DNA of 24,000 bases. It comes from Defluviitaleaceae bacterium. Lineage in GTDB: Bacteria > Bacillota > Clostridia > Lachnospirales > WQUN01. The stretch is from contig WQVX01000018.1 in assembly GCA_009785615.1 (NCBI GenBank), positions 8,027-32,026 on the forward strand, given 5' to 3'. The notes under the pieces were generated by a model. It saw only the letters and a program-made list of their open reading frames with translations. It searched no databases and was not told where the DNA came from. Position numbers and translations under genes: made by a program. Shown here piece after piece: positions 375 through 24,000 of the stretch (its first letter is position 1; the number at the start of each line of letters is the position of its first letter).

Positions 375-3300
375 ATGATGGAAGGAATTAATAATGTGAG
401 CATTTCTCGCCGGATCATAGTTTTGATGTTGGTATTTATTGTATTAGTTGGAGCAAATGTGTCCTCCTTGTTTTTTGCTATGCACGCTAATTACGAAGCA
501 AATAATACCTTTGAAGAAAGATATGCCCTTTCTTCTGCTATGTATGAATTAAATTTGGCGGCAGCAGCTTTAACAAGACGGATGAGATTTGTTGCCATGA
601 CCGGAGGAGAATTTCATTATAATGCTTTTTGGGCTGAAATTGAACGCGATCGACCGGGACAGGCATTAGATACTTTTATATCCTTTAACGCCCCTCAAAA
701 TGAAATAGAACTTTTAGAGCAAATTTTAGAGCGAAGAGCACACATGAATGCTATTTCAGAAGAGGTTTTTCGCCTGCGAGCCATAGGAACAGAAGAGTCT
801 TTTATGGAGGCTATTGATCTGGCTCATAGCGCAAAATTTATAAATATAGATATACTTTTTGAAGGAAAAATTCATGATTTAATGGCATTAACAGATATGC
901 GCACACAAGAAATAATAGATAACCTCCTGCGTAAAGTCGAAATTTTTGAAACACTTATGATCGTTATTTCGGTAATATTTATCTTGGTAGGTATTTTAGG
1001 ATTGATATGGTCTAATAAAAAAATCAAGATACTTGCTGTTATATTTGTTGTTATAGCCGGTGCAAATATATTTTTTACTATTTCTGCTATATTTTCAAAT
1101 ATAGAAATACGAGATGCTTATGAATTACAGACTACATTAGTTTTTACCCTCTATGAGATGGAAAGAGGGACAGAAACTTTAACGAGAACATCAAGAGCGT
1201 TTGCTGTACTGGGTGGAGAGCTTCAATATAATATTTATTGGGCAGAGTTAGAACTTGATAGATTCGGCATAGCCTTAGATACTTTTATAACATCTTTCGC
1301 CCCTGATAGTGAAGTAAATATGCTTGCAGAACTTGTACGCAGAATAACTTCACTTAGACAAGTTGAAACCTATGTAATGCAGTTGCGCCTTGCAGGATAT
1401 GTAGATGAAGCTGTTGCCTTAGCTTTTAGTGGGGAATTTGCAACTCTTAGAATACCAATTAATGCCATGAATCAAGAACTTCGTGAAATAGTGAATGAAC
1501 GTACGCAAGAAATGGTGAATGCTGCTCTTCATAGTTATAATGTTTTTGGTAGATTGCTAATTATTACTACATTGTTGCTTTTTATAGTTAGTTTTAGTGG
1601 TTTATTTATGAAATTAAAACAAACTAAGTCTATTGATACCAAGCCAACAGCAAATTTATATGTATTTGGAAGAATAAAAAATCTAACAATCGCAGCTAGG
1701 TTAGTTGCCTCTTTTACGTTAATTATACTCATTTTTATTGTATATGTTGCTATTGCAAATTATTTTAACACAATAATAGATAATTTAAACCGTCACAGCA
1801 CTGATTTTATGTCAGTACGGATGGAAATTTTATTATCTTACCATCAGGAATTTACAGAAATGAGAAGGCTTTTAAGTGAATCTTTAATGAATCCGGAATG
1901 GTTGGAAGTAACAAGCATTAGCGAATCCCATCATCGTTTGACAATTTTAGCAGAAACATATAAAAATTCGATTAGGGCAGATCATATGTTTCCGGAAATG
2001 CCTTATGATAGCCGGATTTTTATTATGAATGAGATAATGACATATGTTAATACAATATATGAGCTTTATAATACAAATTTTTTATTTTCAGATAATATGA
2101 GTTTTCACAATGATGTGCTAAATTATGTAAGTGCTGCTGAAATTATGCTTCAAATGCTTCGTAGAATTGTCAGTATGAACCAAGAGATAGTAGTAGAAAA
2201 CATTGAGAACTATCGAATTTGGTCAAATAATATTACTATTACTGCCCTTATAACAGCTATAATTTTGGCGTTGTTTCTAGCTTATTCCATGGTAAGAATC
2301 TTTACTCTCAAAATTAAAGCCATTGAGTCTGATGCTGCTTTGGTAGAACAAGGCAACTTTGAAGCCGCTTTGTTAAATGAAAAGACGGACGAAATATCTA
2401 AGATATTTACAAATTTAGTGAAAGTATTTACAGAGCTTATTGACGAAATTAATGAAGTTACCCTTAAACATGCAACAGGTAATACCCAAGTCCGTATAAA
2501 TGCTGACCAATTTCATGGAGGATATCAACAAGCCGCCCTTGTTATCAACAAATTGATGGACACTGTCAACGAAAGCATAACAAATTTAAAAGCAGCAGAA
2601 GAACGTGCTCAAATCATGCTAAACGGAAACCCCATAGCATGTTATTTGATTGACGAACACTTTACAATTTTAGACTGTAACAATGGAGCAATTGATTTGT
2701 TTGGGTTTGCAAACAAGGATGAATCACTTGAAAAAAGCTATGAAATTTTTACTGCAAAAGGTTTTAGTAAATTCAAAAAACATTTTGATGTTGCCTTAAT
2801 AGAAAAATACAATAAATTTGAATGGAATTTGGAAAAATACGATGGTACATTTGTGCCTTGTGCTTTTACTTTTGTACGCTTTACTTTAGAGAACAAACAT
2901 GTTATTGCCGCATATATCCAAGATATGACTGTAATCAAACGGATGATGGAGCAACAAGAGCTGGTTCAAATAGCACAAGAAAACAGCCAAGCAAAGAGCA
3001 GGTTTCTTGCCAGTATGAGCCATGAAATACGTACACCTATTACGGCAGTATTAGGTATATCAGAAATACAACTGCATAACCCTGCTTTGCCTTTAGAGAT
3101 AGAGGAAGCCTTTGCTAAAATATATAGTTCATCTAATACCTTATTAGGCATTGTTAATGATATCTTAGATCTTTCTAAAATTGAAGCGGGCAAGATGGAA
3201 ATTTCTACTGAAAAATATGAAGTAACCGGCCTTTTAAGCGATGTAATTCAGCTAAACTTGGCTTTTTTAGGCAATAAACAACTTGATTTTGTTATTGACA

Positions 3301-4745
3301 TAGATAAAAATATTCCTATTTACCTAACAGGTGATGAACTTCGTATAAAGCAAGTTTTAAATAATTTGCTCTCTAATGCTTTTAAATACACTGAAAAAGG
3401 TTATGTAAATTTTAAAATGCACATTACAAACGGAAACCAAGCAAATTATGTAAACTTGGTTATTATTATACAAGACACAGGCTGCGGAATGAGCAAGATG
3501 CAGCTGGAAGCACTTTTTGATGAATATTCACGTTTTCATGAAAAAGAAATTCGCTTTGAGCCGGGCACCAGATTAGGAATGCCTATAACACATAGCTTGC
3601 TTCAACTGATGAATGCTACAATTAGTGTTGAAAGTGAAGTGAATAAAGGTACGATTGTTACGGTTATTCTTCCGCAACAAGTTGAAACCCATGAAATATT
3701 GGGAGCGGAAACCGTTAAACATCTCAAAAATTTTAACATTAGCCCACACTTTGCAGTAAAAAGATTGTCTTTTAGCTCCGAATCTATGCCCTATGGACGT
3801 GTGCTTATAGTAGACGATGTAGATGCTAATATTTACGTAGCCAAGGGTTTAATGGAGCTATATCAACTACAAATTGATACTTGTATGAGCGGGCCTGCTG
3901 CTATAGAAAAAATTAAAAACGGAGATGCATATGACATTATTTTCATGGATCAAATGATGCCGGAGATGAGTGGCATTGAAGCTACTGCAATTATACGACA
4001 AATGAATTATGCTCTCCCCATTGTTGCATTAACAGCAAATGCATTGATGGGTCAAGCCGAAGAATTTTTACGAAATGGCTTTGACGGCTTTTTATCCAAA
4101 CCTATTCAAAGCGCGCACTTAAACGCTATACTACACAAATTCATAAGAGACAAGCATAAAACAACAAATCACGCGGGGGATGACACAATAGAATACCGGA
4201 GTATAGATGACTACTTTAATGAACACTTGAAAAACTCCGGTGTTTACAGCAAGATATGCAAAGATTTTGCACGAAATAAAAAAAATATCATACTTGAAAT
4301 AATTAACTCTATCAAAGAAAATGACCTTAAAACTGCCCATCGCTTGGTACATACATTAAAGGGATTGGCAGGGCTTATTGGAGAAAATCGCCTTTCCGGT
4401 ATTGCTGAAAAGGCAGAAGCAGTATTTGTTGAAGGCAATGTTCCTACCGATTTAATAGACTTACTCAGTTTAGAAATGGAACGAGTGCTTGCTAAAATTG
4501 AAAAAAGATATCCTGCTGAACCCAGCTTGCAACACACAGACAAAACCCTGGATAAAGGTAAAGCAAGTGAAATTTTTGGCAGATTAATTCAATTATTAGA
4601 AACAAATAATGCTAAAGCATTGGAAATGGTAGGCGAGCTTGCAGAAATTCCACAAACAAATGATTTAATTAACCAAATTGAAGCTATTGACTTTGATATT
4701 GCATTACAAACTCTTGCAACCCTAAGAAAAACTTTAGAAGTATAA
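375..4745 (+). CDS. Hybrid sensor histidine kinase: six predicted TM helices framing three extracytoplasmic modules, then HAMP, PAS, HisKA, HATPase, REC and Hpt
   Basis: 1456-aa ORF. The H-box is SHEIRTP (His codon 3021-3023). N-box is LLSNAFKYT, G1 is IQDTGCGM. The receiver has DD...FMDQMMPEMSG (Asp codon 3948-3950) and an SKP motif. The Hpt motif is HTLKGLAG (His codon 4350-4352). Hydrophobic segments lie near aa 13-36, 193-212, 218-240, 393-412, 441-464 and 619-645. The start is uncertain: ATG 375/378 lack a clear SD, whereas in-frame GTG 396 sits 8 nt after GGAAGGA (381-387). Confidence 0.9.
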   Translation: MMEGINNVSISRRIIVLMLVFIVLVGANVSSLFFAMHANYEANNTFEERYALSSAMYELNLAAAALTRRMRFVAMTGGEFHYNAFWAEIERDRPGQALDTFISFNAPQNEIELLEQILERRAHMNAISEEVFRLRAIGTEESFMEAIDLAHSAKFINIDILFEGKIHDLMALTDMRTQEIIDNLLRKVEIFETLMIVISVIFILVGILGLIWSNKKIKILAVIFVVIAGANIFFTISAIFSNIEIRDAYELQTTLVFTLYEMERGTETLTRTSRAFAVLGGELQYNIYWAELELDRFGIALDTFITSFAPDSEVNMLAELVRRITSLRQVETYVMQLRLAGYVDEAVALAFSGEFATLRIPINAMNQELREIVNERTQEMVNAALHSYNVFGRLLIITTLLLFIVSFSGLFMKLKQTKSIDTKPTANLYVFGRIKNLTIAARLVASFTLIILIFIVYVAIANYFNTIIDNLNRHSTDFMSVRMEILLSYHQEFTEMRRLLSESLMNPEWLEVTSISESHHRLTILAETYKNSIRADHMFPEMPYDSRIFIMNEIMTYVNTIYELYNTNFLFSDNMSFHNDVLNYVSAAEIMLQMLRRIVSMNQEIVVENIENYRIWSNNITITALITAIILALFLAYSMVRIFTLKIKAIESDAALVEQGNFEAALLNEKTDEISKIFTNLVKVFTELIDEINEVTLKHATGNTQVRINADQFHGGYQQAALVINKLMDTVNESITNLKAAEERAQIMLNGNPIACYLIDEHFTILDCNNGAIDLFGFANKDESLEKSYEIFTAKGFSKFKKHFDVALIEKYNKFEWNLEKYDGTFVPCAFTFVRFTLENKHVIAAYIQDMTVIKRMMEQQELVQIAQENSQAKSRFLASMSHEIRTPITAVLGISEIQLHNPALPLEIEEAFAKIYSSSNTLLGIVNDILDLSKIEAGKMEISTEKYEVTGLLSDVIQLNLAFLGNKQLDFVIDIDKNIPIYLTGDELRIKQVLNNLLSNAFKYTEKGYVNFKMHITNGNQANYVNLVIIIQDTGCGMSKMQLEALFDEYSRFHEKEIRFEPGTRLGMPITHSLLQLMNATISVESEVNKGTIVTVILPQQVETHEILGAETVKHLKNFNISPHFAVKRLSFSSESMPYGRVLIVDDVDANIYVAKGLMELYQLQIDTCMSGPAAIEKIKNGDAYDIIFMDQMMPEMSGIEATAIIRQMNYALPIVALTANALMGQAEEFLRNGFDGFLSKPIQSAHLNAILHKFIRDKHKTTNHAGDDTIEYRSIDDYFNEHLKNSGVYSKICKDFARNKKNIILEIINSIKENDLKTAHRLVHTLKGLAGLIGENRLSGIAEKAEAVFVEGNVPTDLIDLLSLEMERVLAKIEKRYPAEPSLQHTDKTLDKGKASEIFGRLIQLLETNNAKALEMVGELAEIPQTNDLINQIEAIDFDIALQTLATLRKTLEV

Positions 4746-7896: not shown

Positions 7897-9345
7897 ATGT
7901 CCACAGTTCAATATGAACCAAAAGAAGTTTTAAACTTTTTTGAAAAAATCAACCAAATACCAAGAGGATCAGGAAATGAAAAGGCCATAAGTGATTATTT
8001 GGTATCTTATGGCAAAGAAAAAGGCTTTGTTGTAAACCAAGATGAGGCTCTTAATGTGATTATCTACAAACCGGGAAGCCCCGGCAAAGAAAATGATCCA
8101 CCACTTATACTGCAAAGCCATATGGACATGGTATGCGAAAAAAATGCAGATACAGTACACAATTTTTTAACTGATCCTATAGTTCACAGAATTGAAGGCG
8201 ATTTTTTATATGCAAATGGTACCACTCTAGGTGCAGATAATGGGGTGGGCATGGCTCTCAGCTTGGCTATGTTAGACTCAGAAGATGCGATTCATCCGCC
8301 TTTAGAAGTAACTTTTACAGCAGAAGAAGAAACAACAATGAAGGGAATAGCTGCTTTAGACCCTAACCTGCTTAAAGCAAGGCGTATGATTAATATGGAT
8401 TCCGGCAACGACACAACATTTTGTGTTGGATGTGCAGGCGGGGGACGAGTAGACTTTACTGTACCGGTTGTAAGAGAACCTTTAAATAATGGAATGGTAT
8501 GCAGCGTGCTTACAGTGCGTGGGTTGTTGGGTGGACATTCCGGTGGAGAAATACATTTAGGTAAGGCCAACAGTATCCGTACCTTGGGCAGGGCGTTAAC
8601 GGCACTAAAAAATGAAGGAATTAATTTCAAAATAGTTAGTGTATCCGGCGGATTAAAGGCGAATGCTATTCCAAGAGAAGCAGATGCTATAATTGCATTA
8701 AATTCTGAAGATATAGGTAAGGCAAATCAAATAATGTCTACCTTGCAAACAACTCTTCGTTTAGAATATAGAATCCCGGATCCCGGTATAGCTCTGGCTT
8801 TAATACCTACCCAACAGTATTCTGAGGTATTTACCACAGAAAGTGCCCAAAAAGTAATAAATGCTATGCTATTAATTCCCTACGGTGTTTTACACATGAG
8901 TTACGACATCCCCGGATTAGTTGAAACTTCAAATAATGTAGGCGTAATGGAAACCACTCCGGAGGGTGTGTCAATGGATCTGGCATTGCGTAGTTCGGTA
9001 CCTACTCGCCGCTTATTTATACGTACTCAGATAGAAGCTTTAGCTGAATCAATTGGAGCCAAAGTAACATTTTCACATGGATATCCAAGTTGGACATATA
9101 ACCCGGATTCTCCTCTTTTGGCCGCTGCAATCTCTAAATTTGTAGAGATATATCAAAAAGATCCTAACGTTGAAGCCGTTCACGCCGGCCTGGAGTGTGG
9201 ATTTATGATGGAGAAATTTCCAAGCATGGATATTGTCTCATATTGCTGCAAAATTTATGATGCACATACTCCTAATGAGCATCTGTCTATATCTTCATTG
9301 GAACGAGTTTGGAAATATACCCAAGCATTGTTAGCAAGCCTATGA
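7897..9345 (+). CDS. pepD: Aminoacyl-histidine (Xaa-His) dipeptidase, M20C family
   Basis: N-terminal F..I..IPRGSGNEKAISDYL, metal-binding motifs SHMDMV and GADNGVGMA, TAEEETTM, and a length of ~480 aa. SD AAAGGGAG lies upstream of ATG 7897. Confidence 0.88.
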   Translation: MSTVQYEPKEVLNFFEKINQIPRGSGNEKAISDYLVSYGKEKGFVVNQDEALNVIIYKPGSPGKENDPPLILQSHMDMVCEKNADTVHNFLTDPIVHRIEGDFLYANGTTLGADNGVGMALSLAMLDSEDAIHPPLEVTFTAEEETTMKGIAALDPNLLKARRMINMDSGNDTTFCVGCAGGGRVDFTVPVVREPLNNGMVCSVLTVRGLLGGHSGGEIHLGKANSIRTLGRALTALKNEGINFKIVSVSGGLKANAIPREADAIIALNSEDIGKANQIMSTLQTTLRLEYRIPDPGIALALIPTQQYSEVFTTESAQKVINAMLLIPYGVLHMSYDIPGLVETSNNVGVMETTPEGVSMDLALRSSVPTRRLFIRTQIEALAESIGAKVTFSHGYPSWTYNPDSPLLAAAISKFVEIYQKDPNVEAVHAGLECGFMMEKFPSMDIVSYCCKIYDAHTPNEHLSISSLERVWKYTQALLASL

Positions 9346-15807: not shown

Positions 15808-16380
15808 TCACTGTTTACGCTTTTCGCGCAAAATCAAAATCTTTCCGATTATTAGCTGCACTGCCTGAATAAAAAGCATCCATGTAATGATTGAAGCATA
15901 AGGATTGTCTCTTGCACTTAATAACCGGACAGCATAAACAAGGAAAATAGCTGTTGAAATAGCTTTCATAACAAGATTACTTTTTTTTGAATGTGCAAAA
16001 TTTCGTTTGCTGACCGGAGCTAAAGCAATGTTAAGTAGTATTGATAACAAGAGCAAAGCTTCCATCATGCCATGCATAACACTGACATCCGGCAATACAA
16101 GAATCACTGCCGCAAAAATAGCAAACGAAAGAATAACACAATATCTATATTTTTTAAAATGAAAACCGCCGGAGAATAAACGGACACTCATTAATACACC
16201 AATTACAATAAGAAATTCTGTCATCCTACCTATGTACGCAAAAAATATAGCAAAAAGAACAAATTCCATTGTGTTTAAAAAGATTACTTCAAGCATGTAC
16301 CGTAGCTTAGCAGCATCATATTTGCTAAGTTCCATGTTTGCTTCTGCATATCTAACTAATTTACCAACTACAAGTTCCAT
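15808..16380 (-). CDS. agrB: AgrB-family accessory gene regulator B (membrane cysteine endopeptidase that matures cyclic autoinducing peptides)
   Basis: 190-aa polytopic membrane protein. It has the motif VRLFSGGFHFKKYRYC, with His74 (codon complement of 16159-16161) and Cys81 (16138-16140) spaced 7 residues apart, as for the catalytic His77/Cys84 of S. aureus AgrB. The N-terminal region resembles clostridial AgrB, and SD GGAAGGA lies upstream. Confidence 0.85.
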   Translation of the reverse strand: MELVVGKLVRYAEANMELSKYDAAKLRYMLEVIFLNTMEFVLFAIFFAYIGRMTEFLIVIGVLMSVRLFSGGFHFKKYRYCVILSFAIFAAVILVLPDVSVMHGMMEALLLLSILLNIALAPVSKRNFAHSKKSNLVMKAISTAIFLVYAVRLLSARDNPYASIITWMLFIQAVQLIIGKILILREKRKQ

Positions 16381-16482: not shown

Positions 16483-16671
16483 GATTATGTTAGAACTACA
16501 AGATTTGTGTTGATCTGTTTGCTTTACTTTTATGTAAAATTTATGATATAGTTTCCGGGTAATGTATTGTGGGAAAGTGTACCCTCATTGTTGCATAAAG
16601 TATAGATATAGCAATATGAACTCTTAGTAACCGGTAATCGGTACGCTGTAAACAGGAAGGAGAATTTGAAC

Positions 16672-17751
16672 ATGAGAGTGTATAATTTTTCGCCGGGGCC
16701 GGCCACATTACCTGTGGAAGTCTTGGAACAAGCAGCTAAAGAAATGGTGGAATACAAAGATTGTGGCATGTCTGTAATGGAAATGAGCCACCGTTCCAAA
16801 ATGTACGAAGAAATACATGAAGAAGCCGAAATTCTGTTAAAAGAACTGATGGAGATTCCCTCTAACTACAAGGTGCTATTTTTACAAGGCGGAGCATCCC
16901 AACAATTTGCTATGATCCCTATGAATTTATACAAAAATGGCAAAGCAGACTATGTACTTACCGGTGAATGGGCTAATAAAGCTTGCAAAGAAGCTGCTAA
17001 GATACTTAAAACTACAGTTATTGCTACTTCTGAGGATAAAAATTTTTCTTATATCCCTGATATTAAGGAATTTTCTCCTGATGCAGACTATATTCATATC
17101 ACCACTAATAATACAATTTGCGGTACTCGATTTTTAAAAATACCTGATACCGGAAACATCCCTTTAGTAGCTGATATGTCCTCGGGTATATTGTCTGAAG
17201 TATTTGATGTTTCCAAGTTTGGCTTAATATATGCCGGAGCACAAAAAAATATAGGCCCGGCAGGACTCACTATTGTAATTATTAGAGAAGATTTACCGGA
17301 AAATGAGTATGCTTCTAAATTGCCCTCCATCTTCCAATATAAGGTTCATGCCAAAGCAAATTCCCTTTTTAATACTGCCCCAACGTACAGTATTTATATG
17401 GCAAAACTCTGCTTGGAATGGCTAAAAAATCAAGGCGGAGTAGCGGGCATTCAAAAAGTGAACGAGGCAAAAGCTAAGTTAATGTACGACTTTTTAGATA
17501 ATTCCCCTTTATTTAGTGGCATCGCTGATAAAAAATATCGCTCGCTAATGAATATCCCTTTTACTACCGGGGACGATGCTAAAGACAAGGATTTTATAAA
17601 AAAAGCTGCTGAAGTTGGACTTGTAAATTTAAGCGGCCATAGATTAGTTGGCGGACTTAGAGCCAGCATATACAATGCTATGCCGATGGCAGGTGTTGAG
17701 AAACTTGTTAATTTTATGAAAGACTTTGAAACCGGTGAGGGGCAAGGCTAA
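16672..17751 (+). CDS. serC: Phosphoserine aminotransferase
   Basis: MRVYNFSPGPATLP start, EMSHRS, FLQGGAS, a PLP-lysine region GAQKNIGPAG, and a length of ~360 aa. ATG 16672 lies 9 nt after GGAAGGAG. Confidence 0.93.
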   Translation: MRVYNFSPGPATLPVEVLEQAAKEMVEYKDCGMSVMEMSHRSKMYEEIHEEAEILLKELMEIPSNYKVLFLQGGASQQFAMIPMNLYKNGKADYVLTGEWANKACKEAAKILKTTVIATSEDKNFSYIPDIKEFSPDADYIHITTNNTICGTRFLKIPDTGNIPLVADMSSGILSEVFDVSKFGLIYAGAQKNIGPAGLTIVIIREDLPENEYASKLPSIFQYKVHAKANSLFNTAPTYSIYMAKLCLEWLKNQGGVAGIQKVNEAKAKLMYDFLDNSPLFSGIADKKYRSLMNIPFTTGDDAKDKDFIKKAAEVGLVNLSGHRLVGGLRASIYNAMPMAGVEKLVNFMKDFETGEGQG

Positions 17752-18911
17752 TGTATAAAATTCTAACATTAAACAAAATCGCAAATTGTGGACTTGATGA
17801 ACTTCCCGATACTCAATTTTCTATATCTGATGATGAAAAAAATCCAAATGGCATTCTTGTGCGTAGTGCTGTTTTAGCACAAGAAAATTTAAACGACGGG
17901 CTTCAAGCCATAGCACGTGCAGGAGCCGGAGTTAATAATATTCCTGTGGAAAGCTGTGCTGAAAAAGGAATCGTTGTATTTAATACTCCCGGAGCTAATG
18001 CCAACGCCGTTAAAGAACTTGTAATGGCAGGATTGTTTCTTTCCAGCCGTGATGTTATTGGCGGGATCAACTGGACACAAGGGCTTCTTAACCGGACAGG
18101 GGTAGCAAAGTTAGTGGAAAAGGGCAAATCTCAATTTGCAGGGCCGGAAGTAGCCGGCAAAAACCTGGGAATTATCGGCCTGGGAGCCATTGGCGTACTT
18201 GTAGCCAATGCTTGCCGTCATTTAGGTATGAGCGTTTTTGGGTATGATCCTTATATCTCGGTAGATGCAGCTTGGGGCTTATCTCGGGGTGTTCGTAAGG
18301 CTTCAGACTTGGACAGTATGCTTGCAGGATGTGATTATATTTCTATACATGTACCTAGTAACACGGAAACTAAGGGCATGTTTAACAGTGACCTCTTTGC
18401 AAAATGCAAAAAAGGGGTACGAGTGCTTAACTTTTCACGGGCAGAGCTGGTGGATAACACTGCTATTAATGAGGCAATTAATAATGGTATTGTATCTTGT
18501 TATGTAACAGATTTCCCCACAGAAGAATTGCTGGGCAACGATAAAATTATTACAATTCCGCACCTTGGAGCCTCCACCCCGGAATCTGAGGATAACTGCG
18601 CTACAATGGCGGCGTCTCAGCTTCGCGAATACCTTTTATATGGCAATATCAAAAATTCCGTTAACTTTCCTGACTGTGAAATTCCATTCGTAAATAAAAA
18701 GCGAGTGTGCGTAATTCACAGAAATGTAGCCAGGGTAGTAGGGCCTATTACTACTTTGTTTGCAGATAGATCCATTAATATTGATAACATGCTTAACAAA
18801 AGTAAAAATGAGTATGCCTACACAATGTTAGATGTAGATGCTGCCAATGTAGAAGGCATAGAAGAAGAAATCCTTAAAATAGATAATATACTAAAAGTAC
18901 GGGTGATATAA
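17751..18911 (+). CDS. serA: D-3-phosphoglycerate dehydrogenase with a C-terminal ACT domain
   Basis: NAD fold GIIGLGAIG, catalytic-region motifs (SIHVP, NFSRAELVD, PHLGAST), and an ACT-like C-terminus. The start shares 1 nt with the serC stop (TAATG). Confidence 0.88.
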   Translation: MYKILTLNKIANCGLDELPDTQFSISDDEKNPNGILVRSAVLAQENLNDGLQAIARAGAGVNNIPVESCAEKGIVVFNTPGANANAVKELVMAGLFLSSRDVIGGINWTQGLLNRTGVAKLVEKGKSQFAGPEVAGKNLGIIGLGAIGVLVANACRHLGMSVFGYDPYISVDAAWGLSRGVRKASDLDSMLAGCDYISIHVPSNTETKGMFNSDLFAKCKKGVRVLNFSRAELVDNTAINEAINNGIVSCYVTDFPTEELLGNDKIITIPHLGASTPESEDNCATMAASQLREYLLYGNIKNSVNFPDCEIPFVNKKRVCVIHRNVARVVGPITTLFADRSINIDNMLNKSKNEYAYTMLDVDAANVEGIEEEILKIDNILKVRVI

Positions 18912-20128
18912 TGAGCGTTACCATTAAACCTTTTTGTGCTTTGCGACCTAAGCCGGAAATGGCCAAGGATGTAGCGGCATTGCCTTACGATGTAATGAAC
19001 ACAGAAGAAGCTAAAACAGAGGCAGCAAACAAACCTTACTCATTTTTGCATGTAGATAAAGCAGAAATTGATTGTCCGAAAGGCACAGATTTGTATAGCC
19101 CTGTTGTTTATACCAAAGCTAAAGAAAACCTGCAAAAGCTTGCTGACAATGTACTTATTAAAGATGAAAAGCCCATGCTTTATATTTATCAGTTAACAGC
19201 TAACGGATGTACTCAAACCGGGCTGGGTGCTTGCGTTAGCGTGGCAGAATATGAACAAGGGGTAATCAAACGTCACGAATTCACCAGGCCGGACAAAGAG
19301 CAAGACAGAATCAACCATATGTTAGCATGTAGCGCACATACAGGGCCAATCTTTATGGCATATAGGGATTCTGCTGATTCAACTTCGCCGCGAGCTTTAA
19401 TGTCAGAATGGATTGCAACAAATAAGCCAACCTATGACTTTATTGCGGATGATGGGGTAAAACATGCTCTTTGGGTTATAGAAGATGATATGGTACAAGA
19501 AAAGCTGATAAAAGCTTTTGAAGATGTGCCTTGTATCTACATTGCTGACGGACACCATCGCAATGAAGCGGCACGCAAGGCCGCAAATGCAAATTCACCT
19601 GAAAGTCTGTTTTATTTAGCTGTAATCTTTCCTCATGATGAATTGGCTATTATGGATTATAATCGCGTGGTTAAGGATTTAAATGGGCTGGATAAATCTG
19701 AATTTTTATCTGCTGTTAAAAAAATTGCTATGGTACAAAAAAGCCCCGCTCCTGTAAAGCCAACTTGCAAAAACGAAGTTGGAATGTACATGTCGGGACA
19801 ATGGTATCAGCTTGCAATTGATAAAGGCGAAACCACGGATATTACAGGTCAGTTGGATGTATCTATTCTACAAAATAAAATTCTTTCGCCAATCCTTGGA
19901 ATACAAGATCCTAAAGCGGATGCCCGTATAGATTTTGTAGGCGGCATTCGTGGAACTGAGGAATTGGAACGCCGCGTAAATAGTGGTGAAATGGCTGTAG
20001 CTTTTGCCTTGTATCCTACTTCTATGGAAGAACTTATGGCTGTAGCAGATGCAGACCAAATTATGCCGCCAAAATCTACATGGTTTGAACCTAAGCTAAG
20101 AAGCGGATTGTTGGTACATGTTTTTTAA
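18911..20128 (+). CDS. DUF1015-family protein of unknown function
   Basis: The N-terminus IKPFCALRPKPEMAKDVAALPYDVM and the motifs HEFTRPDKEQDR and IADGHHR match my recollection of the DUF1015 family (~400 aa). The start shares 1 nt with the serA stop (TAATG). Confidence 0.72.
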   Translation: MSVTIKPFCALRPKPEMAKDVAALPYDVMNTEEAKTEAANKPYSFLHVDKAEIDCPKGTDLYSPVVYTKAKENLQKLADNVLIKDEKPMLYIYQLTANGCTQTGLGACVSVAEYEQGVIKRHEFTRPDKEQDRINHMLACSAHTGPIFMAYRDSADSTSPRALMSEWIATNKPTYDFIADDGVKHALWVIEDDMVQEKLIKAFEDVPCIYIADGHHRNEAARKAANANSPESLFYLAVIFPHDELAIMDYNRVVKDLNGLDKSEFLSAVKKIAMVQKSPAPVKPTCKNEVGMYMSGQWYQLAIDKGETTDITGQLDVSILQNKILSPILGIQDPKADARIDFVGGIRGTEELERRVNSGEMAVAFALYPTSMEELMAVADADQIMPPKSTWFEPKLRSGLLVHVF

Positions 20129-20171
20129 CGTGAGTTTGACGAAGGCACACCTCTTTAGAGGCTGAGCAACC

Positions 20172-20208
20172 AAAAATCCCCCAAAGTGCTTTACTTTGAG
20201 GGATTTTT
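20172..20208. terminator. Bidirectional rho-independent terminator between the convergent DUF1015 and MCP genes
   Basis: AAAAATCCC (20172-20180) pairs with GGGATTTTT (20200-20208). The inner stem is CAAAGT (20182-20187) / ACTTTG (20193-20198). A/T runs on both flanks provide a U-tract in either direction. Confidence 0.85.
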
Positions 20209-20212
20209 ACAA

Positions 20213-22423
20213 TTATAGTTTGAAATATGCCACCAACTGCTTTAGAAATTCGGCTTGTGAGTTTAGCTCTTGCGATGCCGCTGCCGTTTCTTCGGAAGCA
20301 GACGAATTACTTTGCGCTATCTTGAATATTTGTGCAAGTCCCTCACTTATTTGTGCAATTGCTTCCGCCTGCTCTTTTGAAGATATGGAAATGCTGCCTA
20401 TGAGTGCCGATACTTCGCCAGCGTTTTTTACAATCATGTCTAATGATTGCGATGTCGCTTCTGCAACCTTTCCCCCACCTTCTACACGGCTATTTGAAGT
20501 TTCTATAAGCCCTGTAGTCTCGGTTGCGGATTTTTGACTGCGTCCGGCAAGATTGCGCACTTCTTCTGCAACCACACTAAAGCCTTTGCCATGTTCACCC
20601 GCTCTTGCGGCTTCTACTGCGGCATTAAGGGCAAGCAGATTTGTTTGAAACGCAATACCTTGAATGTCTTTGATAATCTTAGAGATTTCGCCTGACGATT
20701 CCTTGATTTGTGACATTGCTGTCAACATATCCTTCATAGAAGCGTTTCCTTCTTGGGCATTAACTGTAGATTTATTTGAAATTTCGCTTGCTTCCATTGC
20801 ATTATCGGCATTTTTGCGTGTTTGATGGTTGATTACATCAATAGTAACATTAAGCTCTTCTACAGAGCTTGCTTGTTCTTGCGCACCGTTTGCCAATTCT
20901 GATGCACTTGCAGAAATTTGTTTAGCTCCCGATAATACCTGTTCGGATGCGGTTGCAATATCAGACATTGTTTTGTGAAGCGTTACGGAAATGTTGTTAA
21001 GTGACTCCTTAATAGGGGCAAAGTCGCCCACAAACTGACGTGTGATTTCGGTTGTTAAATCACCCCGTGCAATTGCTGCTGAGTCCTTTGTTATTTCGTC
21101 AATATAAGCATGTATTTCTGTAAGCATATTATCTACTGCGGAAACAATGTTATTAAACACTCCTTCGTAAGCAGTAGCATTAGGATTAAAGCCCTCTTCC
21201 GTGATAATTCTGTCAAGCTTATCAAGGTTAAAGTTTCCTTTTTGCATCTCGTTTATACAAATTTCTATAACAGCGATAGGAGTAGCAACGGATTTGGCTA
21301 TATCATTAAGCCCATCCATGATTTTTCTCCAATCGCCATTATATTTACTTGAATCAATTTTGAAATTTAAATCCCCCTTATTTGCTATTGCATTAATCAT
21401 GGCATTTACCTCGGTGCTAATACCCTTCAAGTTAGCAATAACGGCACGCATGGCCTGTGCTTGTATTATTAATCCGCCCGGCATTTCGTTTATTTCTATA
21501 TCAAAATCGCCCTCGCCAATGCTACTAAGCACTCTGCACACATCTCTAATATTTGCTATTTCATCGTCCATTATATAATTAATGCTTTCTACCATTTCTT
21601 TAAAAGAATTATGGTACTTGTTTGCGTCAACTCTATAATCCATATTACCAAGGGTATTATACTCATGTTTTATACTCGACAAGTCCTGCACTATGGATTT
21701 TATGACATTCATAAGCTCGCTAATGCGACGAGTAAGCATACCTGTTTCATCATTATTTCTTGTTTTGATATTTATGTTAAGATTGCCGTCCGCTACACTG
21801 GAAAGAGCAGACACAACTTCGTCTATGGGTCTGGTAATGTTGCGTGTTATTACTAATGAAATAGCTATACCCACAACCATAGTTATTGCTGCCAGTATTG
21901 CAACTACCAAAGTAGTGTTTATGGCGAAATTTGACATTTCATTACCAATGGCATCCATACGGGTTTGTGTAAGTTCAAACATTACCATAAATTGCATACG
22001 TATAGCATCGGCTATAATATTATTTGCCGGAAGCAAAGCCAAAACTTGTTCATAATTATCGGCTCTTGCTGCTACAAAAGTAGGATTTGTAACATGCCTC
22101 AAGTAATCAGTAATCAAACTATTCAAAAATTCCGCTTCAGCCAGTAGTACATTGCGTTCCGTTGGGTCTATTTCAATATCACGCCAAAGGCTTTGTTTAT
22201 ATTCGTCTAATGTGTTTTGTAAATTATTGTGCATAATGTTAAATTCATTTTGCAATATGTCAACAGCAGCAACATTGCCGGTCACAAAAGAAGCCTGTAA
22301 AACAATCCGCCGTAAATCTAACAATTCTACCTCTAAATCACGCATAGTTGAATATCTGTTGTTTGGATATTCCAGCACATAAGTATAACTATTATTTACT
22401 TGCAAAATACTAACAATGCCCAT
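20213..22423 (-). CDS. Methyl-accepting chemotaxis protein: four-helix-bundle-like N-terminal domain, single TM, poly-HAMP array and MCP signalling domain
   Basis: The C-terminal signalling hairpin contains [37 protein letters not shown]. One TM ([23 protein letters not shown]) is followed by RNITRPI HAMP. I prefer ATG 22423 (7 nt after GGAAGGGGG). The track start at 22498 would overlap the upstream TctC gene by 62 nt and adds no hydrophobic helix. Confidence 0.9.
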
Positions 22424-22436
22424 AATCGCCCCCTTC

Positions 22437-23477
22437 CTAATATTCAATGTAGTCTGACATTTGGTACATAGAATCCCAAATATCTTGAAGGAAACCATCT
22501 ACAGCAAAAGTTGGAAGGAAAAACGGTCTTGCGTCAAAAGCATCTCGGATTGTAGCGATATATTCATTGTTAAACTGTATATCTGCTACTACATCCGAAA
22601 GTCTGTGTAAAATCGCATCATCTGTTCCCGGCGGAAATGCAAAAAAATATGCACGACCCATAGCTGCACCGGCTAACCCCATATCTTCAACAGTGGCAAC
22701 ATAGCGGAAGTTAGGGTTGCGCCGCTCGGCACTTACAAGAAGAGGTACTAAATCTCCACTTTCAATAAATGGACGAAACACTGCATAAACACCTATAGCA
22801 AGTTCAATTTCATCATTGATTATAGCTTCTGCCATAAGGCCGGCACCTGCCATGCTTACAGGGGTTAAACTAAAACCTCCGGCAAGTTCCATTTTCCGCA
22901 GTACAAAAAACGAAAAACCCGGCATAGTTGTAGCTACTCTGTAGCCGCCTGGATTAGCCCTTGCTCTTGCAAGAAAATCAGCAGCATCTGTAAAGCCAAA
23001 TTGGGTTCCTGCTACTAAAACAGTTGCGTTATCGAAATTGGAAATGTTCGATATAGCGAAATCTCTCCAATTTAGGCTTGTGTTGCCTGATATTACATTA
23101 GTAAACATGTTGCCGGTATGGTAAAACAGCATGGTGTATCCATCGGGGGTACTACTGTTTACATAACTTGCGCCGTATGTACCTGCGTCACCGGGTATAT
23201 TAACCACCTCAAAGGGCACACCAAAATATTCCGACAAAAATGGTGCGTAGGCACGGGCATAAAAATCTGTATCACCTCCCGGCGCAAACGGAACAACAAT
23301 AGTCACCGGGCGCGTAGGCCAATTAGTGTCGGAGACTCTATTATTAATTGCTGTAAATCCACCATCAGTAGGTTCTTGTGTGTTTTGTCTGCCACAGCCA
23401 ACGAAAACCCCAAAAAATACAATAACTAATAATAAAACCATTTTTTTGTTCTTAGTACGGTTTTTAGATTGCTCCAT
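22437..23477 (-). CDS. Tripartite tricarboxylate transporter substrate-binding protein (TctC/Bug family), predicted lipoprotein
   Basis: [34 protein letters not shown] is the characteristic TctC N-terminal motif. The signal sequence [17 protein letters not shown] has a lipobox-like VGC. SD GGGAGG lies upstream. No TctA or TctB gene is present in the window. Confidence 0.82.
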
Positions 23478-23508: not shown

Positions 23509-24000
23509 CTATATTTTTTGAAACGCTATGCGCTCGTTGCCATTTTCTATCCATATAATTCCGCAACGCACAAAGTTTAGTTTATCCATTAATTTTAGCA
23601 TGGGGACATTATCCGGATGTGTGTCTATGCGAATGTTATTGATTTGCTGAAAGCACCAATTTAAACAAAATTCGCCTACACCTTTAACTTCCGGTTTATC
23701 AGTTGTACGGGCTATACGATGTACTACCCCATAAGGCGTATTGGAATCTATCCATGCGCCTTCTATTTTTTCGTAAGTAGGATCCGGCTCAACATTAAAA
23801 AAGAACACAGCCAAGATTTTTTCGTTTTCTTCTTGGCTGTTATCTTTTAGTGTACATACATAACTTTTGCCGGCGTGTATATCTGCCTCTATTAGCGTTT
23901 GAGGAGGATGGACAGTTCCCCATTGCTCCGGGTTATCATTTTCAATCATGAATGTTCTCGCTTGGGCGTAGATGTCCATTACAATGGGCAAGTCCGGCAT
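23509..24000 (-). CDS. GNAT-family N-acetyltransferase (the N-terminus may continue beyond the window edge)
   Basis: IYAQARTFMIENDNPEQWG...YPP-type N-terminal region, an acetyl-CoA loop-like HRIARTTDKPEVKGVG, and ~160 aa. The ATG falls exactly at the window end (23998-24000), so the true start cannot be confirmed. Confidence 0.7.
   Translation of the reverse strand: MPDLPIVMDIYAQARTFMIENDNPEQWGTVHPPQTLIEADIHAGKSYVCTLKDNSQEENEKILAVFFFNVEPDPTYEKIEGAWIDSNTPYGVVHRIARTTDKPEVKGVGEFCLNWCFQQINNIRIDTHPDNVPMLKLMDKLNFVRCGIIWIENGNERIAFQKI

Follow-up and report, generated by a model that had tools for sequence, protein, structure and literature searches.

An orphan TctC-family lipoprotein gene conserved beside a four-helix-bundle chemoreceptor gene: a candidate binding-protein-dependent chemotaxis input

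The 24,000-nucleotide stretch of Defluviitaleaceae bacterium contig WQVX01000018.1 analyzed here (positions 8,027 to 32,026; hereafter the window) contains two adjacent minus-strand genes whose arrangement suggests a role in chemotaxis. [quoted passage not shown] The second, at 20213–22423, encodes a 736-residue methyl-accepting chemotaxis protein (MCP) in which Pfam matches and alignment with orthologues delineate a four-helix-bundle (4HB) ligand-binding domain (LBD) without the first transmembrane segment (TM1), followed by the second transmembrane segment (TM2), a HAMP domain, a poly-HAMP array and a signalling domain.

The two genes are closely spaced. The minus-strand sequence across their junction (22424–22439) reads ...GAATAT TAG GAAGGGGGCGATT ATG GGC. 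A first-pass annotation of this DNA had described a tctC stop codon 13 nt from the MCP start and an MCP Shine-Dalgarno (SD) sequence overlapping that stop codon, and both observations hold: the spacer is exactly 13 nt (22424–22436), and the SD-like sequence GGAAGGGGG at 22429–22437 has as its first base the last base of the tctC TAG. A consensus scan reveals no promoter-like or terminator-like site between the two genes; it yields fewer promoter-like sites overall than are found in shuffled sequences, and is uninformative as to the operon's own promoter. Directly after the MCP stop codon there is a terminator-like hairpin followed by a U-run (20171–20209, minus strand), with a folding energy of −21.4 kcal/mol (z = −4.58) that none of 200 shuffles equals. 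The idea that TctC and the MCP are a single fusion protein split by a frameshift or a sequencing error can be rejected: the two frames differ, each frame has stops at the junction, the alignment of TctC with its orthologues continues to the very C-terminus, and the orthologues keep the same two-gene layout.

Several features of the pair bear on its origin. First, there are 12 sequence-distinct loci with downstream sequence available and with a TctC of 60% or higher identity to that of the window (the window lineage, comprising the window, L002 and L003, together with L004, L005, L007, L012, L015, L016, L017, L019/20, L021, L091 and L093), and every one of them has an MCP with the same sensor domain 10–34 nt downstream of TctC. 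The spacer is 10–16 nt in most orthologues, 20 nt in L093 and 34 nt in L017, and the orthologue junctions carry TAGGAGG or TAAAGGGGG at the site of the window SD, such that the SD follows or overlaps the stop codon. Second, there is no cross-locus match among the 73 flanking open reading frames (ORFs) of eight loci (BlastP, E ≤ 1e-10), and only the tctC-MCP pair itself is conserved among the eight. Third, the MCP-linked TctCs are monophyletic in a neighbor-joining tree (bootstrap 99) and are nested among transporter-linked TctCs, with the window TctC forming the deepest branch. Finally, 19 positions are at least 94% conserved in the MCP-linked clade yet differ in the transporter-linked sister clade. 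The annotation had conceded that its proposal would fall if the adjacency were unique to this strain and no interaction were predicted, and the adjacency is not strain-specific; recurrence at 11 further loci with unrelated flanks indicates that the adjacency is more than chance. Such a pattern would be expected if a transport SBP had been recruited to a receptor once and selection had then kept the two genes together.

The related loci are derived from higher-termite gut metagenomes (IMG 3300010369 is a Labiotermes labralis P1 gut sample; PMC7800795). When 185,579 GTDB species-representative genomes were scanned with sequence patterns, one of which (YVATVEDM) is conserved across the clade, a single relative was recovered, with 41% identity and located in a Lachnospiraceae tctA-tctC locus. 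The MCP-linked clade therefore seems to be confined to uncultured termite-gut-type metagenome lineages.

Homologues of TctA and TctB, the membrane subunits that with TctC make up a complete tripartite transporter, are absent from the 24-kb window, as the annotation had stated (phmmer with TctA and TctB queries, E ≤ 1e-5; Pfam on large ORFs). It had also allowed that the two genes might lie just beyond the window, but they are not found in the 4.5 kb remaining upstream of tctC to the end of the 36-kb parent contig (ENA ERZ27257300), which carries GAF, radical SAM and S21 genes and the gene of a 163-aa ORF described below. Nor is there a tctA or tctB within 8–10 kb of any of the 12 clade loci, two of the contigs being as long as 117 and 181 kb, and TctC is thus not genetically associated with the membrane subunits at these loci. 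The situation is different for TctCs of 41–56% identity, which have tctA, with or without tctB, directly upstream; their companions are either a GntR (GntR/FCD) regulator and a thiamine pyrophosphate enzyme, or GD_AH and ILVD_EDD dehydratases together with an NAD_binding_2 reductase. No MCP is present within 6 kb of the more distant TctC loci (about 56 loci, 27–34% identity).

These observations bear directly on whether TctC is still a transport SBP, serving a TctA/TctB pair encoded elsewhere, with the MCP merely sharing its regulation or using it as a second client in the dual manner of the E. coli maltose-binding protein (MBP). We consider this unlikely. Sister TctCs do reside in tctB-tctA-tctC operons, some of them in the same metagenome samples, the ligand-clamp motif is intact, and metagenomic contigs cannot show that tctAB is absent; all SBPs known to stimulate chemoreceptors in E. 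coli and Pseudomonas are parts of transporters (PMC8050422), and TctC may also be likened to the orphan Bug proteins of Bordetella, which are thought to serve permeases encoded elsewhere. A transport role does not, however, account for the lack of TctA/TctB within 8–10 kb at every one of the 12 loci, for a monophyletic clade that is always MCP-linked while all other neighbors change, or for the clade-conserved positions that distinguish it from its transporter-linked sisters, and the overlap of SD and stop codon points to production matched with the MCP rather than with a permease.

The TctC protein has the features of an exported SBP of this family. Its AlphaFold2 (AF2) model has a predicted local distance difference test (pLDDT) score of 90.3, above 93 for residues 51–346 and low for residues 1–50, and its best 17 Foldseek matches in the PDB are all TTT SBPs (BugE, TphC, AdpC, MatC, Bug27 and BugD), with template modelling (TM) scores, normalised to the target, of 0.79–0.88; the predicted fold is that of a TTT SBP, with two alpha/beta lobes and a two-strand hinge. 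By sequence, the best PDB match is AdpC (5oei, E 1.5e-25), others being BugE, Bug27, MatC, TphC and BugD. A predicted signal peptide with a lipobox (..VFVGC, Cys28; 23394–23477, minus strand; hydrophobic segment at aa 8–32) indicates an extracytoplasmic location, and Cys28 is invariant in all 18 TctCs of the MCP-linked clade. About 22 residues following Cys28 are disordered in the AF2 model, and the low-confidence N-terminus is consistent with a signal peptide plus a flexible tether. We infer that a lipid anchor holds TctC at the external surface of the membrane in a monoderm, Defluviitaleaceae-like Clostridium. The window SerC shares 70–84% identity with Defluviitaleaceae MAG proteins, which places the DNA in the order Lachnospirales of the Clostridia and agrees with a monoderm host.

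The ligand-binding elements are also retained. The hallmark loop of TTT SBPs is PFAPGGDTD in the window TctC (aa 63–71; 23265–23291, minus strand), corresponding to the ligand-clamp motif P-F-x-A-G-G-x-x-D (PMC8556258). The clade consensus is PFPAGGDTD, in which P63, G67, G68, D69, T70 and D71 are invariant, and the PFxxGGxxD carboxylate-clamp loop is kept in 18 of 18 clade TctCs; the glycine of the second pincer loop, G211, is at least 90% conserved over 117 homologues. Retention of these motifs, together with the enzymes encoded in the sister operons, suggests that TctC captures a carboxylate. Descent from those operons, whose products include galactarate/altronate-type dehydratases and a thiamine pyrophosphate enzyme, points to a sugar acid or a hydroxy-dicarboxylate as a possible ligand, as a lead only; a Halomonas TctABC system is tied to galactarate/glucarate metabolism in a review of the TTT family (PMC5812351). 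In a comparison aimed at relaxed constraint, the window TctC departs from the core clade at 15 positions that are at least 94% conserved there, of which 5 look ancestral, 6 derived and 5 ambiguous.

The cytoplasmic part of the window MCP contains a HAMP domain (46.3 bits), three HAMP_2 stretches and an MCPsignal domain (PF00015, 157.5 bits; aa 546–701; 20321–20788, minus strand). The signalling domain differs at only 3 of the 86 positions that are invariant in the orthologues, and the hairpin-tip motif is intact. The LBD corresponds to aa 1–162 (21938–22423, minus strand). Its AF2 model, built from a two-sequence alignment, has predicted helices at aa 3–44, 51–81, 87–120 and from 124 onward, with pLDDT values of 84–94 over aa 21–160, and its best Foldseek matches, though with weak E-values, are 4HB chemoreceptor LBDs: PcaY_PP (TM score 0.79) and MCP2201 (TM score 0.82), as well as Tsr and Tar. 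The truncated LBD of the window has no match to the Pfam 4HB_MCP_1 profile, but the orthologue LBDs of L017 (37.9 bits) and L005 (30.3 bits) are above its cut-off of 27, and these scores together with the predicted fold of the window copy place the sensor domain in the 4HB_MCP_1/TarH clan. The LBD family is a narrow one. An exhaustive HMMER search, used in place of a word-indexed search that had given one match, found 73 matches at E ≤ 1e-3 among 1.84 billion cluster representatives.

The pattern of conservation within the module may bear on how the receptor is stimulated. The most conserved stretch of the LBD in a scan of nine orthologues is aa 107–131 (22031–22105, minus strand), which in the model spans the predicted membrane-distal loop between alpha3 and alpha4; this segment (which spans ARADN) and the predicted apex loops at aa 45–50 (SFxxGN) and 121–123 are the best-conserved parts of the domain. 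Mean identity is 78% for TctC, 62.7% for the signalling domain, 58.5% for the LBD and 40% for the poly-HAMP array, such that the extracellular LBD comes close to the cytoplasmic signalling domain in its degree of conservation. The MCP could instead sense a chemoeffector directly through its 4HB domain, with TctC scavenging or buffering the same compound and so tuning sensitivity, or having an unrelated function. PcaY_PP and MCP2201, the best structural matches of the LBD, have been crystallised with carboxylates bound directly to the LBD, and there are distant LBD homologues with no adjacent SBP; a chemoreceptor that competes with SBPs for ligand has reportedly been described in a recent study of S. 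meliloti. We nonetheless regard direct sensing as quite improbable, in that an unrelated function for TctC leaves unexplained the strict adjacency and translational coupling over 12 loci with complete turnover of the flanks, and the unusually high conservation of the LBD is more easily reconciled with a protein partner than with a small-molecule pocket free to drift.

The window MCP differs from its relatives in one important respect. The orthologues (11 of 11) begin MKN(L/I/M)KI(G/K)xKL(T/A)IGFG... and are 748–766 aa long (with the exception of the 596-aa protein of L017, which has no poly-HAMP array), whereas the window protein begins MGIVSILQV and is missing about 26 N-terminal codons relative to every orthologue, including the start codon and TM1. 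In a DNA alignment with nine orthologues, the window and L003 share a gap of approximately 83 columns that opens immediately after the SD and closes near codon 26. The deletion is of about 80 nt, with its junction at about 22429/22430, and it took the original start codon, the cytoplasmic N-terminus and most of TM1, of which aa 1–9 (MGIVSILQV) are the remnant. Because the original start is deleted, translation must begin at the internal ATG at 22423, which stands where the orthologues have a Leu codon; the reading frame is intact for 736 codons. In Kyte-Doolittle plots the orthologues have two hydrophobic segments each (TM1 at about aa 5–37 and TM2 at about aa 188–224) and the window MCP has one, TM2, at aa 163–197 (21833–21937, minus strand). 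It thus does not have the two transmembrane segments of a transmembrane class I MCP, and the annotation's N-terminal domain of aa 1–190 has no transmembrane helix before it. There is no TM1-like hydrophobic segment upstream of the window MCP in any frame. An alternative start at ATG 22498, inside tctC, was also considered and rejected; it adds no hydrophobic segment, and the extension is an out-of-frame reading of the conserved tctC 3′ end that is seen in the orthologues too. Among the 73 LBD homologues, nearly all align to query residues 1–5 from about residue 21–41 of the match, and therefore have an N-terminal extension that the window MCP lacks. Nor is the deletion an assembly artefact: an independent Logan assembly has no mismatches over 3223 nt across the junction, and the deletion is therefore real.

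The deletion probably affects the function of this copy. Bacteria export a long folded N-terminal domain only inefficiently when it has no signal sequence, and in Tar and Tsr TM2 moves against a four-helix membrane bundle to which TM1 belongs. Lacking a signal-anchor, the 160-aa sensor domain would probably be exported poorly, and the window receptor is probably impaired or atypical. It is conceivable that the protein is instead fully functional, with the LBD exported as an N-terminal tail, TM2 acting as a reverse signal-anchor, and the whole constituting a 'type Ib' single-TM receptor that still receives TctC. The ORF has stayed open for 736 codons in a genome of 38% GC, a well-placed SD and ATG were kept or created at the deletion junction, the signalling domain is without decay at all but the 3 of 86 invariant positions noted above, the charges flanking TM2 (TRNITR on the C-side) favor an N-out orientation, and the allele is present in more than one sequencing run. 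We find this doubtful all the same, given that TM1 is present in all 11 orthologues and nearly all of the 73 distant LBD homologues, that no substitute hydrophobic segment is available upstream in any frame or from the start at 22498, and given the considerations on export and on TM1 set out above.

Other loci carry further variants of the module. At L012 (1037–1726; P0121) the orthologous MCP ends at 229 aa, just after TM2, and there is no MCP-like sequence in any frame between this point and the contig end; either the gene is truncated or the assembly breaks here. L032 (74–1380; Ga0123355_10365044) carries a remnant of the module, in which the tctC frame runs to aa 138 and the last HAMP and signalling domain of the MCP (303 aa) come directly after it, reflecting either an internal deletion of about 2.2 kb that joined the 5′ part of tctC to the 3′ part of the MCP gene or a chimeric contig. 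The L017 MCP (2520–4310) has 596 aa, a GTG start and no poly-HAMP array, and its signalling domain differs at 28% of the positions invariant in the other orthologues, which suggests that the cytoplasmic part was swapped while TctC and the LBD were kept. L007 (5683–7638; also L011) has a second MCP gene 363 nt upstream of tctC, coding for a 651-aa protein with an unrelated N-terminal region, one hydrophobic segment and a similar poly-HAMP array. Among more distant relatives of the sensor domain, L094 (337–3175; ENA ERZ27264051 k141_2679810) encodes a homologue of 36% identity that has a HAMP domain and a SpoIIE phosphatase output with no MCP domain, and has an SBP gene of another family (SBP_bac_11/8/6) 25 nt upstream. 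This suggests that the 4HB subfamily may pair with SBPs repeatedly. The distant homologues L096 and L097 have no adjacent SBP gene, and L095 is at a contig end.

Taking these observations together, we favor, with moderate confidence, the interpretation that tctC and the MCP gene form a two-gene operon inherited as a unit, in which TctC has been recruited from transport as a dedicated co-receptor of a 4HB chemoreceptor. Signalling from binding protein to receptor is suggested by the linkage of the genes. The lipid-anchored TctC would bind an external carboxylate and, when loaded and closed, would dock on the membrane-distal tip of the dimeric 4HB sensor domain; docking would displace TM2, and the signal would pass via the HAMP and poly-HAMP array to the CheA-controlling tip. 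The system would work as MBP does with Tar, but with a dedicated binding protein that has no transporter of its own, as in BasB-BasT, and coupled translation would supply TctC and the MCP in roughly matched amounts. By analogy, there are precedents for each step in the docking of SBPs on Tar, Trg and Tap, the gene arrangements of BasB/BasT and CosB/CosT, and signalling from BctC to BctE (PMC8050422). A stronger form, in which the TctC clade has left transport altogether to become a stoichiometrically co-expressed, ligand-capturing subunit of the 4HB/poly-HAMP chemoreceptor, is put forward only tentatively, and we are slightly inclined to doubt it.

Several points weigh against this interpretation. 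First, the clade loci are all on metagenomic contigs, and a TctAB pair could be present elsewhere in the genome. Second, the MCP could sense its ligand unaided, as the direct binding of carboxylates by PcaY_PP and MCP2201 implies. Third, the apex motifs of the sensor domain (AFxxGN and P...AAR..D...LLP) also occur in distant homologues with no adjacent SBP gene (P0245 and P0247), and are therefore not specific evidence for docking of TctC. Fourth, a mirror-tree comparison of TctC and LBD distance matrices gives only a weak correlation (r = 0.35, seven pairs). Finally, the module is damaged in several assemblies (loss of TM1 in the window, the L012 truncation and the L032 deletion), and may therefore be dispensable. 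The first-pass proposal of a binding-protein-dependent chemotaxis input is thus supported in part, strongly by gene linkage and evolution, with 12 loci and one clade derived from transporter-linked TctCs, and is weakened where the window itself is concerned; having lost its start codon and TM1, this copy of the MCP may not work as proposed.

Other genes lie around the pair in the window. On the same strand as tctC, 31 nt upstream and without an intervening terminator, is a 163-aa ORF (23509–24000, minus strand). It has no Pfam match even at E ≤ 5, and by eye its C-terminal part resembles GNAT. Both L002 and L003 have the ORF, and it is absent upstream of tctC at all other loci, so that while it is possibly co-transcribed with tctC in the window lineage only, it was rejected as a component of the module. 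To the other side, a tight plus-strand cluster of serC, a serA-like 2-hydroxyacid dehydrogenase gene and a DUF1015 gene (16666–20128) converges on the MCP gene; the same genes also flank the module in L002, the parent contig. Over 11,564 compared bases, L002 and the window show a single difference. Elsewhere in the window are genes encoding an AgrB homologue associated with quorum-sensing peptide maturation (15808–16380, minus strand) and a 1456-aa hybrid histidine kinase with PAS, HisKA, HATPase, REC and Hpt domains (375–4745, plus strand).

The closest parallels in gene organization are archaeal. BasB and CosB are lipid-anchored SBPs, a property also predicted for the window TctC. In Halobacterium salinarum the SBP genes of the BasB-BasT and CosB-CosT systems are immediately upstream of the receptor genes with no transporter genes, and both genes of each pair are needed for taxis (PMC8050422); genetic coupling of this type is seen here in the 13-nt spacer, the overlap of SD and stop codon, and recurrence at 12 loci. 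Those systems differ from the present one in being archaeal, in having SBPs of the Peripla_BP_6 and OpuAC families and dCache-like sensor domains, and in recognizing amino acids and quaternary amines. The docking model adopted here is that of E. coli Tar-MBP, Trg-RBP/GBP and Tap-DppA, in which the closed, loaded SBP binds at the membrane-distal apex of a domain of the same TarH/4HB clan. The E. coli SBPs are soluble parts of ABC transporters, encoded with the transporter and far from the receptor genes (PMC8050422), whereas here the SBP is a TTT-family lipoprotein whose gene shares an operon with that of the receptor and has no permease gene close by. The established SBP-stimulated chemoreceptors include Tsr-LsrB, CtpL-PstS and TlpB-AibA/B in addition to the Tar, Trg and Tap pairs, and their SBP genes sit with transporter genes, the exceptions being BasB/BasT and CosB/CosT; in a Gram-positive host there is indirect evidence for SBP-dependent chemoreception by McpC of B. 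subtilis (PMC8050422).

Signalling by TctC-family proteins has a single demonstrated precedent, Bordetella pertussis BctC-BctE, in which the SBP BctC acts on the membrane sensor BctE (PMC8050422; PMC9602780). BctE is a histidine kinase with a 2CSK_N domain and not an MCP, the host is a Gram-negative proteobacterium, and BctC also serves the BctBA transporter with which it is encoded. A second relevant protein is AdpC of Rhodopseudomonas palustris (RPA4515, PDB 5oei), an orphan adipate-binding TctC that is unlinked to TTT membrane genes. Rosa et al. (2017) reportedly proposed that it functions in signalling rather than transport. It is about 24% identical to the window TctC and differs further in having no identified receptor partner and in being soluble, periplasmic and alphaproteobacterial; it has been flagged as associated with signalling-protein genes (PMC8050422). 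In the Firmicutes, XylFII-LytS of Clostridium beijerinckii combines a transporter-less SBP gene with that of an adjacent sensor having a TarH-like extracellular domain, and the structure of the complex is available (5XSJ; PMC8050422), but the SBP is of the Peripla_BP_4 family and the output is a histidine kinase that controls xylose transport and not chemotaxis. Full-text searches of open-access papers recovered no description of a TctC-chemoreceptor or TctC-MCP pair, in agreement with the annotation, which was aware of no such pairing as an established paradigm in Gram-positive bacteria. For orphan TctCs, a role in 'signaling and chemotaxis' is raised in a review of the family as speculation only (PMC5812351).

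This organization is not surprising in principle, as SBP-dependent chemoreception is well established; what is new is a TTT-family SBP in a dedicated operon with its probable receptor. There are hundreds of orphan TctC/Bug binding proteins with no known partner, and the clade described here is a defined case, with one switch from tctBA linkage to MCP linkage followed by strict co-inheritance, that makes a long-standing speculation about orphan TctCs directly testable. The TM1-deletion allele and the other damaged copies provide ready-made negative controls, and suggest that some gut populations can do without the module. The pairing at L094 hints that the 4HB subfamily may be a general SBP-docking module. 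If the proposed role is correct, no TTT-family SBP would have been shown to supply a chemoreceptor before this one, and within the literature reviewed the pair would be the first bacterial SBP-MCP operon of the BasB/BasT type, such operons then not being restricted to the archaea. SBP-mediated chemoreception would be extended to a fourteenth SBP family, and one class of orphan TctC/Bug proteins would acquire a concrete function.

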